A model generated the notes under the pieces. That model had not been told where the DNA came from. It saw only the letters and a list, made by a program, of their open reading frames with translations, and searched no databases. A program made the translations under genes and the position numbers. Below, piece by piece: positions 1 through 4,930 of a stretch of DNA of 59,248 bases (position 1 is the first letter of the stretch; every line of letters begins with the position of its first letter). The DNA comes from Eubacteriales bacterium (GTDB lineage: Bacteria > Bacillota > Clostridia > Oscillospirales > CAG-272). The stretch spans positions 1-59,248 of the forward strand of contig JAZSET010000084.1 in assembly GCA_045531795.1 (NCBI GenBank). Reading direction: 5' to 3'.

Positions 1-241
1 AGTATAAATAAAAATAAGTAGTAATAGTAGGCAGTGTTGAAACTGTTGAAAAACTCAAAAACGGTTGATATATCAAAAAAATTTTTTCTTTAATAAACCT
101 GTTTTTTTGTTTTTTCTATGTTTAAATAAATGTTAAAAACTTTTTTTGAAAAATTACTTTTTAAAATACAATTTTTTATTCTTTTGAACAAACAGTTAAT
201 TAAAATGAAATTAACATATTTTATCAACACCTGTTGAAAAC
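1..241. other. oriC: Chromosomal replication origin (oriC, dnaA-downstream half) with basal unwinding module: AT cluster, DnaA-trios, short GC spacer and tandem DnaA-box-like 9-mers
   Basis: Directly downstream of dnaA and very AT-rich. AAG-TAG-TAA-TAG-TAG at 16-30, GCAG at 31-34, TGTTGAAAC at 35-43, TGTTGAAAA at 44-52. Further boxes TTATCAACA at 221-229 and TGTTGAAAA at 232-240. Confidence 0.85.
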
Positions 242-1597
242 TTATGATTGAACCTCATCAATAATTTCATTTATATCTATTTCAAAAAGCGAATTACATT
301 TACTTTCATTGTCTATTTTCTTGACAGAAGCAATAACTGTGGAGTAATCTCTGTTGAATATACTTCCTATTTTAGGATAAGAAAGATCAGTTGTCTTTTT
401 AAGAACAAACATTGCAATTTGTCTTGCATTTGATATATTGCTTGTTTTTGACTTGCTCTTTAAATCATCAACAGAAATTCCGTATTTTTTTGAAACCGTT
501 TCAAGAACCTTGTCAATAGTAACAGTAACAGAAACCTTATCTCTTGCAATGTCTGATATTGCCTGTTTTGCTACCTCAAGTGTTATTTCCTTGTCAGATA
601 AAATCTTGATGGCACATAGTTTTTTAACGGCACCCTCAAGCTGTCTAATATTGCTTGTAAGATTTTCGGCAAGGAGATTTATAATTTCGGGTGAAAGAGT
701 AATTCCCTTGCTTTTTGCTTTGTTTGAAATAATTGCAGCACGCAGTTCAAAGTCCGGAGGATTTATATCAGCAGCTATTCCCCAGTCGAATCTCGTTAAA
801 AGCCTGTCCTCAAGATGTTTGATATCCTTTGCAGGGCGGTCAGAAGTCAGTATAATCTGTACGCCTTTTTCATAAATTGCATTGAATGTATGGAAAATTT
901 CTTCCTGTGTTGTTTCGGTTTTTGCAATAAATTGAATATCGTCAATCATAAGCATATCGGCATTTCTGAATTTGTTTCTGAATTGTTCCGTTGTTTTTTT
1001 GGATATGCTTTCAATAAGCTGATTTGTAAAATCTTCGCTTGTTACATAAACTATGTTAATATTGGGATTTTTCTTTTTAATATGATTTGTTATAGCGTGA
1101 AGTAAATGTGTTTTACCAAGTCCGCTCGGACCGTGTATAAACAATGGGTTATAGTCATAACCGGTATTGTTGGCTACGGCAACGCAGGCAGCGTGGGCAA
1201 GTTTGTTTGAATTACCTACAATGAAGTTATCAAATGTGTATTCTTCATTTCCCGTAAAATAAGAAACCTCATCAATTGAAGTAAGCTTTACTTCTTCAAT
1301 TTCCTTTTCAGGTTCAGAATCTGATAATTCATTGTATTTTTCTATGTTTTCTCCCTGAGCAATAACAATTATATCTATATGAAATCCAAGAACGCTTTCA
1401 AATACTTCCTCAAGTTTTCCTTTAAAAGAATTATTGAGAATGTTTTTTCTGTACATATTGTTTGCGGTCAAAACAGCTCTTTTTTCCGTAAGTTCGGTAA
1501 GAATAAGCTCTTCAAACCAGAGTTTGAATGTACTTTCGTTTACATTTTTCTTAAGTTCTTCAAATATAAGGGACCAGATTTCCATTAAATTATCCAT
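242..1597 (-). CDS. dnaA: Chromosomal replication initiator DnaA
   Basis: YTFDNFIVG, NPLFIHGPSGLGKTHLL (Walker A), MIDDIQF (Walker B), RQLEGA, and a domain IV helix-turn-helix. Confidence 0.99.
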   Translation of the reverse strand: MDNLMEIWSLIFEELKKNVNESTFKLWFEELILTELTEKRAVLTANNMYRKNILNNSFKGKLEEVFESVLGFHIDIIVIAQGENIEKYNELSDSEPEKEIEEVKLTSIDEVSYFTGNEEYTFDNFIVGNSNKLAHAACVAVANNTGYDYNPLFIHGPSGLGKTHLLHAITNHIKKKNPNINIVYVTSEDFTNQLIESISKKTTEQFRNKFRNADMLMIDDIQFIAKTETTQEEIFHTFNAIYEKGVQIILTSDRPAKDIKHLEDRLLTRFDWGIAADINPPDFELRAAIISNKAKSKGITLSPEIINLLAENLTSNIRQLEGAVKKLCAIKILSDKEITLEVAKQAISDIARDKVSVTVTIDKVLETVSKKYGISVDDLKSKSKTSNISNARQIAMFVLKKTTDLSYPKIGSIFNRDYSTVIASVKKIDNESKCNSLFEIDINEIIDEVQS

Positions 1598-1768
1598 ATT
1601 TTTAAAATCCTCTTTTATTTAAGAAATTTTACCATTTTATGATATCACGCGCGCGTATAATCTAATATATATATTATATAAAATAATATATCCTCGCTTC
1701 ATTATATCACATAGTTGTTGAAAATTCAATAGGAAAATACATTTTTAACAAAATAATTTTAAAAACAC

Positions 1769-1798
1769 TTGACAAATGGCGGAAAATATGTATATAAT
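1769..1798 (+). promoter_or_regulatory. SigA-type promoter for rpmH
   Basis: TTGACA at 1769-1774, 18-bp spacer, TATAAT at 1793-1798. AAGGAGG RBS precedes the ATG at 1863. Confidence 0.7.
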
Positions 1799-1862
1799 AT
1801 TAGGTGTCGTTATGTGAAAATACGTAAAATGATAAAAGAAGCAAGATTAAGGAGGTGCCCAA

Positions 1863-1997
1863 ATGCTTAGAACATACCAGCCTAAGAAGCGTCAGAGACA
1901 GGTTGAACATGGCTTCAGAAAAAGAATGAAGACAGCTAACGGAAGAAAGGTCTTAAAGAGAAGACGTGCAAAGGGCAGAGCAAGACTCAGCTATTAA
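1863..1997 (+). CDS. rpmH: 50S ribosomal protein L34 (absent from the ORF track)
   Basis: Hand translation [44 protein letters not shown]; canonical position divergent from dnaA. Confidence 0.98.
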
Positions 1998-2031
1998 TAA
2001 GCCGTTATGCGGGTTTATCAAAACAAGACAC

Positions 2032-2087
2032 AAAGAACCGCCGAATTTCGATAATGTCCTTCAGGCTTTTCGTTTCGGTGGTTTTTG
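2032..2087 (+). terminator. Probable intrinsic terminator after rpmH
   Basis: AACCGCCGAA...TTCGGTGGTT stem followed by a T-rich tail. Confidence 0.55.
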
Positions 2088-2167
2088 TTGTATATGTAAC
2101 AAGAGTATTATTGTTAACACAATGTTGTGTATTTATTAAAAATAAAAAGGTATAATTATTGCGTATT

Positions 2168-2563
2168 ATGAAATATAGGGCAATAAGCGAAAATCATCTT
2201 TATTTAAAGGCGTACAGTAAAGGAAAAAAGGTTGTTGGAAGAAACATAATTGTATATGTTTTAAAGGATTATTTATCGGAAAAATTGCGCCTTGAAAATC
2301 CACAGAAGAAAAAGATTAACAGAGTAGGACTTACAGTAACAAAAAAGAACGGAAAAGCTGTAGTCCGTAACAGAATTAAAAGAATAATAAGAGAAGCTTA
2401 CAGGCAGACTGACACAGAGTACAATATAAAAAAAGGATATCTTATAGTAATAGTCGCAAAAATTTCGGCAGCTGACAAAAAAACAGATGATATAAAAAAA
2501 GATTTGATATATGCAATGAAAAAGCTGTCAATGATTGATGTGTCAAGCGATAATTTAAAATGA
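2168..2563 (+). CDS. rnpA: Ribonuclease P protein component
   Basis: RVGLTVTKK and [16 protein letters not shown] (RNR motif); follows rpmH. ATG at 2168 preferred over the upstream TTG. Confidence 0.96.
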
Positions 2564-2787
2564 AAAATATTTGTATTTTTATAATTAAGATATATAGAAA
2601 ATATATTTCTCCGCTAAAAAAACCGTGCTGCCGATTTACGCCCACTTGCTCAAGTTATGCATTAGAGGCGTTTGAAAAGCGCGGCTTTTTTGTTGGTTTA
2701 CTGCTTACAATCTGGCGTGTACTCAGATGTAATCCTTTTTGTAAGGGCGGATACGACCCTGTACCTGACAGAAAGGTAAAAAAATAA
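2560..2787 (+). CDS. yidD: Membrane protein insertion efficiency factor
   Basis: [33 protein letters not shown]. Confidence 0.96.
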
Positions 2788-2818
2788 TATTTGCTTTAAA
2801 AGCAGAGAGGAAATTATT

Positions 2819-3973
2819 ATGTTTGATTGGTTTTATCAGGGACTTGGTTACATTATAAGATTTTGCTATAATTTAACAAATAACTATGCTCTGGCATTAT
2901 TGCTTTTTGCATTGTTTGTTAAGGTTGTTCTTTTCCCGTTTGGAATTAAACAGCAAAAGAATATGGTAAAGCAGGCAAAACTCAGACCGCGCGAAATGGC
3001 GATCAGAAAAAAGTATGCCGGCAGAAATGACCAGAAGACCCAGCAGAAGCAACAGGAAGAGATAATGGCTCTTTATCAGGAGGAAAACTTTAATCCTATG
3101 GGCGGATGTCTGCCTCTTCTTATACAGTTTCCTATCCTTATAGCTCTTTATCAGGTAATAACAAAGCCACTCACATATATTTGTCAGTTCTCTGAAGCTA
3201 CAATAGCTGCAATAAATGAAAGAATTGCAACATTTACAGATGTTGCAGCGAAAAGTGCATATTCTGCAGAAATTACAGCAATTACAAATATTGAAAAATT
3301 CGGTATAGAAAAATTTACTGACATAAACGGCTTTTCTGCAGAAGTAATACCCAACTTTGAAGTTTTTGACGGTGCTCTTAATCTTGCTTATATACCCAGT
3401 TTCAAGGAATTTTCGTGGTTACTTCTTATCCCGTTATTTACTCTTGTATTTACCGTACTTTCAACAAAAATCAATAAAAAATTATCCTATCAGGCTCCCT
3501 CATCCCAGGACGTTGCCAACAGCAGTTCAATGAAGATAATGGAGTATTCAATGCCCCTTATCAGTACCTACATCTGTTTTACTGTTCCCGCAACAATCGG
3601 TCTTTACTGGATTTACCAGAATGTTCTTACCGTTTTGCAGCAGCTTGTGCTTTATAAGATGTATCCGTATCCGAAGTTTACAGAGGAAGACTATAAGGCA
3701 GCAGAAAAGGCAGTAGGCAGCAACAAAAAAGAAAAGAAAACTGCTTCAACGGGACCCAAGGAGGGTGTTCGCTCACTTCATCATATAGATGACGATGAAT
3801 TTGAAGAAATCTACGGAAAAAAGAATCCGAAAAAGGAAGAAATTAAAAAAGCAGCACCTTTGAATAATGAAAAAAAGACAGAGGAAGCAGAAGAATTAAA
3901 AGAAAAAGACAGTGAAAAGGACATCCCTGCAATAAAGGATGACAAAAATACAACTTATAAGAAAAAAGACTGA
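2819..3973 (+). CDS. yidC: YidC/Oxa1 membrane insertase with a long charged C-terminal tail
   Basis: GGCLPLLIQFPILIALY, IGLYWIYQN, multiple TM segments, and synteny. Confidence 0.95.
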   Translation: MFDWFYQGLGYIIRFCYNLTNNYALALLLFALFVKVVLFPFGIKQQKNMVKQAKLRPREMAIRKKYAGRNDQKTQQKQQEEIMALYQEENFNPMGGCLPLLIQFPILIALYQVITKPLTYICQFSEATIAAINERIATFTDVAAKSAYSAEITAITNIEKFGIEKFTDINGFSAEVIPNFEVFDGALNLAYIPSFKEFSWLLLIPLFTLVFTVLSTKINKKLSYQAPSSQDVANSSSMKIMEYSMPLISTYICFTVPATIGLYWIYQNVLTVLQQLVLYKMYPYPKFTEEDYKAAEKAVGSNKKEKKTASTGPKEGVRSLHHIDDDEFEEIYGKKNPKKEEIKKAAPLNNEKKTEEAEELKEKDSEKDIPAIKDDKNTTYKKKD

Positions 3974-3994: not shown

Positions 3995-4930
3995 GTGAAA
4001 AACGAACAGATTTTTACCGGAAAAAGCGTTGAAGAAGCTCTTGAAAATGCTTTGAATGATCTTGGTATAAGCGAAGAAAACTGTACCTATGAGGTTCTTG
4101 AACACGAAAAAAAGGGAATACTCGGAATAGGATCTTCCCCTGCAAAAATAAAAATCATTTTCACAAAGAAGAAACACGGCGAGGAGCTTGCAGTAAATTA
4201 TGCAAAGACAATCCTTTCTGATATGGAAATTGACGCAGAAGTAAAACTTGAAAAAACAAATTCAAACAGATATAATCTCTCCATAAATGGAGAGGGTACA
4301 GGTATTCTTATCGGACATCACGGAGATACTCTTGATGCTCTCCAGTATATTGTTAATCTTGCTGTTAACAAAAAGGAAGAAGACGGAGAAAAGGGAGAGT
4401 ATATGAATATCACGGTAGATGTCGAAAATTACCGTGCAAAAAGAGAAGAAGCTCTCAAAAACCTTGCCGAAAGAATGGCGGCAAAGGTTCTTAAATATAA
4501 GAGAAGCGTAATTCTTGAGCCAATGCTTCCGTATGAAAGAAGAATAATTCATTCAAAAATACAGGAAATTGAGGGCGTTTCAACTAATTCTATCGGAATG
4601 GACAATAACCGTAAGGTTGTAATTTTCCTTGAGGAAACAGGTTTCCAGAAATCAATGGAAAGAGACGCAGAAAGACGAGGCGGCAGAGGCGGCAGCAGAG
4701 GAGATAGTCGCGGTAAAGGCTATTCTTCAAAGAAGTCGTCATCTGTAAATCTTCCCAAGATTGAAAAGAAACAGCCTGTAAAGGTTGAAGTTGACGATTA
4801 TGATGAAAGCGATTATTCATCAACAGCATACTTAAGAGAGCCTACAAAGCGTTTTTCAAGCTTTGCTGAATATGAAAGTCATATGGCAAGCCTTGCAGCA
4901 GAACAAAAGGATGAAAACAAAGGCGAATGA
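3995..4930 (+). CDS. jag: Jag/EloR/KhpB RNA-binding protein (Jag_N-KH-R3H) with a C-terminal extension
   Basis: FTGKSVEEAL (Jag_N), LIGHHGDTLDALQYI (KH), ERRIIH (R3H). GTG start with AGAGG RBS. Confidence 0.95.
   Translation: MKNEQIFTGKSVEEALENALNDLGISEENCTYEVLEHEKKGILGIGSSPAKIKIIFTKKKHGEELAVNYAKTILSDMEIDAEVKLEKTNSNRYNLSINGEGTGILIGHHGDTLDALQYIVNLAVNKKEEDGEKGEYMNITVDVENYRAKREEALKNLAERMAAKVLKYKRSVILEPMLPYERRIIHSKIQEIEGVSTNSIGMDNNRKVVIFLEETGFQKSMERDAERRGGRGGSRGDSRGKGYSSKKSSSVNLPKIEKKQPVKVEVDDYDESDYSSTAYLREPTKRFSSFAEYESHMASLAAEQKDENKGE

Follow-up and report, generated by a model that had tools for sequence, protein, structure and literature searches.

The stretch of DNA analysed here (the window) is a complete contig of 59,248 nt, contig C2 of a MAG comprising 172 contigs and 1.84 Mb at 41% GC. 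The dnaA gene is encoded near its start on the minus strand, so the first 241 bases are the 3′ flank of dnaA (Table 1). The rpmH gene is oriented divergently from dnaA and is followed by an rnpA-yidD-yidC-jag-like run of ORFs; for the matching independent contig, the Pfam families Ribosomal_L34, Ribonuclease_P, 60KD_IMP and Jag_N were obtained. The GC content of the first 2 kb is 31%. Searches against Rfam families gave no match in the window or at the end of contig C30, and no terminator-like site was found in positions 1 to 1900.

Table 1. Features identified in the first 2 kb of the window
Position	Strand	Feature	Sequence and remarks
1-15		AT-rich, putative duplex-unwinding region, first 15 bp	agtataaataaaaat
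16-30	+	Five DnaA-trios	AAG TAG TAA TAG TAG; 3′-GAT-5′ type, A central in all five
31-34		GC-rich spacer, 4 bp	GCAG (CTGC on the dnaA-sense strand)
35-43	-	Trio-proximal DnaA box	GTTTCAACA; + strand reads TGTTGAAAC; counterpart of B. subtilis box 7
44-52	-	Distal DnaA box	TTTTCAACA; + strand reads TGTTGAAAA; counterpart of B. subtilis box 6
131-190		Three one-mismatch box-like sites	TTTTTAACA (131-139), TTTTCAAAA (144-152), TTTTGAACA (182-190)
221-240		Convergent box pair right after the dnaA stop codon	TTATCAACA (221-229, +), TTTTCAACA (232-240, -), 2-bp gap
242-1597	-	dnaA, 451 aa	Matches B. subtilis DnaA (8BTG), E = 1.7e-99
1640-1665	-	Alternating CG tract in the dnaA leader	ACGCGCGCGT; palindromic
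1701-1729	-	Predicted dnaA promoter	TTGAAT, 17 bp, TG-extended TATAAT
1716-1724		Box inside the spacer of the predicted dnaA promoter	TTTTCAACA
1769-1798	+	Perfect sigma-70-type promoter upstream of rpmH	TTGACA-18-TATAAT (12/12); divergent from the dnaA promoter
1863-1997		rpmH	

The contig end and the dnaA-dnaN spacer

Position 1 of the window is only the end of the contig, and the module at positions 1 to 52 is located inside the dnaA-dnaN spacer. The dnaN gene is present on contig C157 of the same assembly, from base 208, and no exact end overlap joining C2 to C157 was found. Both contigs are bridged by a 3242-nt contig of a public gut-metagenome run (Logan X1 record 1), of which letters 1-243 equal window 1-243 and letters 225-3242 equal C157:144-3161. 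Moreover, an independent 104-kb ENA assembly of the same species (L118), whose DnaA differs at 2 of 451 residues, carries the spacer unbroken: the dnaA stop codon is followed by 286 nt and the dnaN ATG, identical to the inferred C2-C157 join. Beyond ...CTACTACTT the spacer reads ATTTTTATTTATACT and then TATTTATTTTTTATTTATTATATAAGCAAAAAGGAGAAAATCAAAATG (L118:4573-4642). The AT-rich DNA continues for about 45 bp past the contig end (TATTTATTTTTTATTTATTATATAAGC...), almost pure A/T at L118:4588-4625, and is followed by the ribosome-binding site (RBS) and the ATG of dnaN. The AT cluster which a first-pass annotation, made from the letters of the window, had placed at positions 1 to 15 is AT-rich as described, but it makes up only the first quarter of a run of about 60 bp, which reaches to the dnaN RBS and is cut by the contig end.

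Both C2 and C157 break within the AT-rich, putative unwinding region. The segment C157:1-~143 is foreign to the dnaA-dnaN spacer as seen in the public-run contig and in L118, and probably represents either a strain variant or a chimeric end of the contig. Away from the origin, at C72:34808-35164, another DNA_pol3_beta (DnaN-like) gene (about 398 aa) was observed.

For the analysis of GC skew, C157 (from base 163) was joined to C2. The skew was about -0.17 over 12 kb on the dnaN side and +0.12 to +0.15 at 3-11 kb on the rpmH side, with the switch at the junction. This agrees with an origin at this place; the test is local, because the genome is a MAG of 172 contigs, and the divergent orientation of the genes is a confounder. 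With respect to a skew inversion elsewhere and to canonical box clusters just outside the window, both raised in the first-pass annotation as points that would speak against its reading, the skew locally changes sign at the dnaA-dnaN junction, and the complete spacer is free of canonical clusters.

Anatomy of the module and published rules for unwinding systems

On the dnaA-sense strand the module reads TTTTCAACA GTTTCAACA CTGC CTA CTA TTA CTA CTT ATTTTTATTTATACT, so ordered that AT-rich DNA comes after the trios. Compared with the canonical box TTATCCACA, the distal box differs at two positions (A3T and C6A) and the trio-proximal box at three. In the following, boxes are referred to by their letter at position 6 (C6, A6, G6 or T6).

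Published search rules for the basal unwinding system (BUS) require at least one box with ≤2 mismatches to TTATCCACA or to the species-specific box and a second box with ≤4, a distance of 0-16 bp (mode 13 bp) from the better box to the first trio with a GC-rich gap averaging 4 bp (PMC8287927), and at least three consecutive trios (NAN) on one strand, pointing away from the boxes; the DnaA-trio consensus is 3′-GAT-5′ (PMC6669920). In the window, the boxes have two (44-52) and three (35-43) mismatches, the distance from the better box to the first trio is 13 bp (the 9-bp proximal box plus the 4-bp CTGC) and hence the modal value, and five NAN trios are present at 16-30. AT-rich DNA lies directly past the trios (window 1-15 and its continuation in L118), and the location is that of a chromosomal origin, in the dnaA-dnaN spacer with rpmH-rnpA-yidC-jag beyond dnaA and a local skew change from -0.17 to +0.13. 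The first-pass layout (AT-rich DNA, trios, GCAG and two abutting boxes in positions 1 to 52) was found to match letter for letter, and its assignment to a Bacillus subtilis-type unwinding system holds, the module being situated between dnaA and dnaN and recovered by all published BUS search rules.

Further boxes and promoters around dnaA

Outside the module, the motif recurs as TGTTGAAAA at 232-240 and 1716-1724 and as TTATCAACA at 221-229, and all three occurrences noted in the first pass are real. In relatives, too, the dnaA stop codon is followed by this pair, or by a triplet, whose position 6 is C or A. The box within the spacer of the predicted dnaA promoter is likely an autoregulation site. 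The three sites at 131-190 lie where the spacer is AT-rich, in its middle part, and could be either weak sites or a mere product of that composition.

Besides these boxes, the divergent promoter upstream of rpmH listed in Table 1 and the alternating CG tract were observed. The latter is represented by CGCGCGCACGCGCG in relatives (the equivalents in L120-L123) and is kept genus-wide in an otherwise AT-rich dnaA 5′ leader.

Genome-wide distribution of box-like sites

Perfect TTATCCACA is absent from the entire 59-kb window, which extends the earlier observation that none occurs in the dnaA-flanking intergenic DNA, and its one-mismatch matches occur at the chance rate (16 versus 14.4 expected). 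The motif TGTTGAAAM was counted 10 times in the window against an expectation of 3.1, a number reached in none of 100 shuffles. Among the 93 window matches to TTTTCAACA with ≤1 mismatch, 7 are located within the first 241 bases, where about 0.4 would be expected.

In the whole 1.84-Mb assembly, window 16-52 is the sole directly abutting tandem box pair with trios and the sole run of at least five CTA-type trios. The word TTTTCAACA itself occurs about once per 14 kb genome-wide: 133 copies were seen, whereas an order-3 Markov model predicts 95 and the maximal-order model 132, i.e. no enrichment beyond composition. Genome-wide enrichment was consequently dropped as evidence, since frequency alone proves nothing once composition is modelled; the signal is position and clustering, and the arrangement is decisive.

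Sites of the A6 type (N-T-W-T-C-A-A-C-A) cluster at C2:35-240, C157:4698-4891 and C30:11107-11157. Versions with C6, G6 or T6 form no cluster anywhere in the assembly; likewise, TTWTNCACA clusters are absent from all contigs, and C6 boxes are missing from both spacers that flank dnaA. The cluster on C157 fills the gyrB-gyrA spacer about 4.7 kb from the origin. It is dense, of A6 type and without a canonical box (TTTTCAACG cc TGTTGAAAG, then TGTTGAAAG, TGTTGAAAA, CTATTAACA, TGTTTAAAA and TGTTGAAAC), includes a convergent pair with a 2-bp gap resembling the pair after the dnaA stop codon, and looks like a secondary DnaA-box cluster. On C30 (L085), three exact copies of TTTTCAACA in one orientation and with 21-bp phasing are located 14 bp from the contig end, in a region of about 1 kb that has no long ORF.

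Two further A6 clusters were discounted as DnaA sites, one on C156 for its location in atpD-like coding DNA and one on C146 as palindromes ahead of a MarR-like gene. The latter region (C146:4812-4918) carries two palindromes TGTTGA-N(3-4)-TCAACA directly upstream of a MarR-like ORF (4417-4851, minus strand), which are likely the operator of this MarR-like regulator. The TCAACA half-site is shared by these palindromes and the DnaA boxes, so other proteins can use similar words.

Conservation in relatives and interchange at box position 6

DnaA-based searches yielded about 80 loci from MAGs (Oscillospiraceae, Eubacteriales, Clostridia) and 30 loci from genomes of the same genus, family or order. 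Nearly all of these loci have the module immediately before dnaN, and in about 60 relatives the order of two boxes, GC spacer, CTA trios, AT-rich DNA and dnaN is maintained. Their spacers are GC-rich 3-4-mers (CCCC, TCCC or GGCC), and their trios are of the CTA/TTA kind, e.g. CTA CTA CTA CTA, at the matching place. Genomes with a canonical DnaA reading head (GNRDHTTVLHA, e.g. Anaerovoracaceae) carry TTATCCACA AATCCACA GGCC CTA TTA CTA... there, which places TTTTCAACA and GTTTCAACA of the window in DnaA-box slots.

Across the family of the window, the box slots alternate between CCACA and CAACA, with occasional AAACA, GAACA and CGACA. The orthologous box in the dnaA promoter shows the same interchange within the genus, being TTTTCAACA in this species and one relative, TTTTCCACA in two others and TTTTTCACA in a further one. 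This species and its nearest relatives have only the A form at position 6, and both BUS boxes are A6 in 4 of 4 genomes of the subclade of the window.

T-W-T-Y-x-A-C-A sites were counted in the first 450 nt after dnaA and grouped by DnaA head. Heads with H434 and H439 were accompanied by 41 C6 and 18 A6 sites, heads with H434 and no His at 439 by 94 C6 and 87 A6, and heads with Y434 by 2 C6 and 17 A6; the subclade of the window had 0 C6 and 14 A6. Across relatives, 16 G6 sites compare with about 122 A6 and 137 C6 sites. These counts suggest that position 6 was relaxed upon loss of H439 and T435, and that the Y434 subclade represents an A-only end state.

A strict rule by which Y434 heads go with A6 only was rejected, as a Y434 lineage (L119) mixes C6 and A6 and several H434 genomes (L090, L100 and L104) are A6-only. 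L119, a Logan contig encoding DnaA P0014, belongs to a distant lineage with the Y434 head GRDYSTVISS; its BUS boxes TTTTCAACA CTTTCAACA (L119:2070-2115) are both A6, and six C6 boxes TTTTCCACA are kept upstream in its 593-bp spacer, so that position-6 recognition can usefully be compared between this lineage and that of the window. The genus tree is compatible with a single origin of Y434 or with two, so few independent events underlie the covariation. The comparison supports a family-wide reading of TTTTC(C/A)ACA, used by this species in its A form only; Y434 is at most a candidate cause of an A preference.

The reading head of DnaA

The DnaA protein of the window was aligned to the E. coli domain IV chain 1J1V and to B. 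subtilis 8BTG, and E. coli numbering is used throughout. Six DnaA residues contact bases, namely R399, P423, D433, H434, T435 and H439 (PMC2533591, PMC7561715). The window protein has K399, P423, D433, Y434, S435 and A439, i.e. four of six are changed (R399K, H434Y, T435S and H439A) while P423 and D433 are kept. Additionally, its basic loop KSKSKTSN is without arginine, and one residue is deleted before RD (FGGRD to FN-RD). The set of six contact residues that marks a canonical reader of the TTWTNCACA type is hence not conserved in this protein, and its origin is without a C6 box cluster.

Recognition of TnCACA, in the major groove, is ascribed to helix 434-451, and that of TTA, in the minor groove, to R399 (PMC5742627); by these region assignments, and at the level of regions only, the changed residues face the differing box positions 3 and 6. 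The D-H dyad is otherwise highly conserved (PMC5043019), which makes the lineage of the window an exception. The heads of the closest relatives have K399, N433, Y434, S435 and P439, those of other genus members read RDHST(V/A)(I/L)SS, and those of the wider family RDHST(V/I)KSS and similar.

The lineage consensus TT(T/A)TCAACA proposed in the first pass stands at the sequence level, given the lack of a canonical cluster, the A6 clusters, the C/A interchange and the four DnaA changes. It has to be widened in scope, however: the broader family has TTTTC(C/A)ACA, of which this species is the A-only end.

Discussion

Window positions 1 to 52, together with about 45 bp located on another contig, most probably (roughly 0.78) constitute the oriC basal unwinding system of an uncultured Oscillospiraceae/Eubacteriales gut bacterium with a 286-bp dnaA-dnaN spacer, in which A is a proper letter at box position 6, alongside a diverged DnaA reading head. 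By analogy with incC of B. subtilis, domain IV of DnaA would bind the abutting boxes TTTTCAACA and GTTTCAACA. From there, ATP-DnaA would oligomerise over the 4-bp GC spacer onto the five trios of the plus strand of the window, the predicted ssDNA-binding track of the DnaA filament. The filament would then stretch the trio strand and open the AT-rich DNA just upstream of dnaN for helicase loading. The convergent pair at 221-240 could serve as an upstream anchor, and the box in the dnaA promoter would provide autoregulation.

A weak-box origin, in which DnaA still prefers C6 boxes (TTWTNCACA), low-affinity sites are filled cooperatively by ATP-DnaA and A6 results from AT mutational drift instead of shifted specificity, is an improbable alternative. 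Low-affinity sites in E. coli and the W boxes of Caulobacter are precedents for such an arrangement, TTTTCAACA is only two mismatches off the canonical box and is caught by standard BUS rules, and the intergenic DNA is very AT-rich. The retention of D433 and P423 would also fit, as would the occurrence of C6 and A6 side by side in H434 relatives and in another Y434 lineage, so heads of the family of the window clearly tolerate C6. On the other hand, the protein has lost four of the six residues that contact bases, the normally conserved His of the D-H dyad and the minor-groove Arg among them; moreover, there are zero C6 boxes in either dnaA-flanking spacer or in the other clusters, and A6 occupies both essential BUS boxes throughout the four subclade genomes.

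The TGTTGAAA repeats might alternatively be bound mainly by another protein, such as Spo0A or a MarR-type regulator, and mimic DnaA boxes. The 0A box of Spo0A, TGTCGAA, is one base off the TGTTGAAA motif, and TTTTCGACA, the reverse complement of the extended 0A box, is one base from TTTTCAACA. Two Spo0A_C matches (C91:6426-6737 and C146:837-1148) show that Spo0A is encoded, so the organism is probably a spore former or descended from one, and TGTTGA-N-TCAACA palindromes precede the MarR-like gene on C146. An array of TGTCGAA repeats is nevertheless missing from the spacer despite the presence of spo0A: no G6 (0A-type) box occurs in it, and G6 is rare at the box positions of relatives. The motif instead fills both BUS box slots, 13 bp from the trios, where canonical-head relatives carry TTATCCACA, and it is arranged in tandem, head to tail, and not as a dimer palindrome. 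By position, orientation and the absence of G6 sites the Spo0A-box reading was rejected, and binding mainly by any other protein is very unlikely. Negligible weight is given to the reading that common AT-rich words came together at a contig end by chance and without function: although TTTTCAACA is common and shows no genome-wide enrichment, the composite site is unique in the genome, its sequence is identical in an independent assembly, and the conservation of the layout at the same syntenic place in about 60 genomes effectively refutes chance.

Going beyond the reading of the module as a basal unwinding system with A as its box letter, the DnaA of this species and its closest relatives (K399/Y434/S435 with A439 or P439) might truly have switched specificity, reading TTTTCAACA well and TTATCCACA poorly. 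Step-wise co-evolution would then have produced a nearly orthogonal initiator/box pair within the Firmicutes, T435S and the loss of H439 first relaxing position 6 to C/A, and H434Y and R399K later fixing A and the T-rich 5′ ends. This proposal is speculative and may well prove too far-reaching. If it is true, the head would be a possible second orthogonal DNA-binding module for origin engineering, a use to which domain IV of T. maritima has already been put.

Origin finders and predictions of DnaA regulons assume TTATCCACA-like boxes, and the literature holds the base-reading residues of DnaA to be conserved throughout the Firmicutes. A large group of uncultured gut and rumen Clostridia departs from both assumptions while its BUS layout is preserved, which favours the view that bacterial origins have the box-trio architecture as their conserved core and that the spelling of the boxes can drift along with the protein. 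The graded natural series of heads and boxes, from canonical through mixed C/A to A-only, is a resource for deriving the rules of position-6 recognition.

Comparison with known systems

The closest known system is the BUS at incC in oriC of B. subtilis (Richardson et al. 2016/2019, PMC6669920; Pelliciari et al. 2021, PMC8287927), with which the module shares the dnaA-dnaN site, the order of elements and the orientation. Common to both are two adjacent boxes, a 4-bp GC spacer, 13 bp between the better box and the trios, trios of the 3′-GAT-5′ type, an AT-rich region and dnaN, as well as upstream boxes nearer to dnaA. The B. subtilis box 6 is the consensus TTATCCACA, whereas both boxes of the window have A6 and T3 (TTTTCAACA and GTTTCAACA), and its DnaA has kept only two of the six canonical base-contact residues. 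Upstream of dnaA a single promoter box stands in place of a box array, so the origin looks monopartite, unlike that of B. subtilis.

For Mollicutes, the DnaA-box consensus 5′-TT(T/A)TC(C/A)ACA-3′ is given by Cordova et al. 2002, as quoted in PMC3322544, and 'ttttcaaca' is the DoriC box for Lawsonia intracellularis (PMC2671203). The spelling of the 9-mer is shared with the Mollicutes consensus, which allows A6 and T3 and of which TTTTC(C/A)ACA is a subset. In contrast to the Mollicutes, the present lineage belongs to the Clostridia (Oscillospiraceae-like), the A form is exclusive and not alternative, and a clear BUS and reading-head substitutions were found. The boxes, presented as non-canonical in the first pass, are therefore less unprecedented than was implied, as the consensus had already been published for Mollicutes (PMC3322544). 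In the literature that was searched, no Clostridia lineage is described with an A-only origin and an R399K/H434Y/T435S/H439A head.

Altered box spelling accompanied by helix-5 changes in domain IV is shared with two further pairs. Thermotoga maritima uses the 12-mer AAACCTACCACC with a diverged domain IV, as cited in PMC6669920 and PMC7561715, and Epsilonproteobacteria have T at box position 5 with T435S-type changes (PMC5043019). A shortening of the Gly-Gly before R432 (FN-RD here) is common to T. maritima and the window protein. The altered recognition in T. maritima and Epsilonproteobacteria has been proven biochemically, whereas a change of recognition here would be a prediction from sequence; the affected position (6) and H434Y also set the present pair apart. 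With oriC2 of Clostridioides difficile (PMC7561715) the window shares a Clostridia module of boxes, trios and DUE in the dnaA-dnaN spacer; the C. difficile DnaA keeps the six base-contact residues and is a predicted reader of TTWTNCACA (PMC7561715), and in this respect the DnaA of the window is different. Both the spelling and the BUS layout are already known, and the module is a variant of a known system and not a new mechanism.
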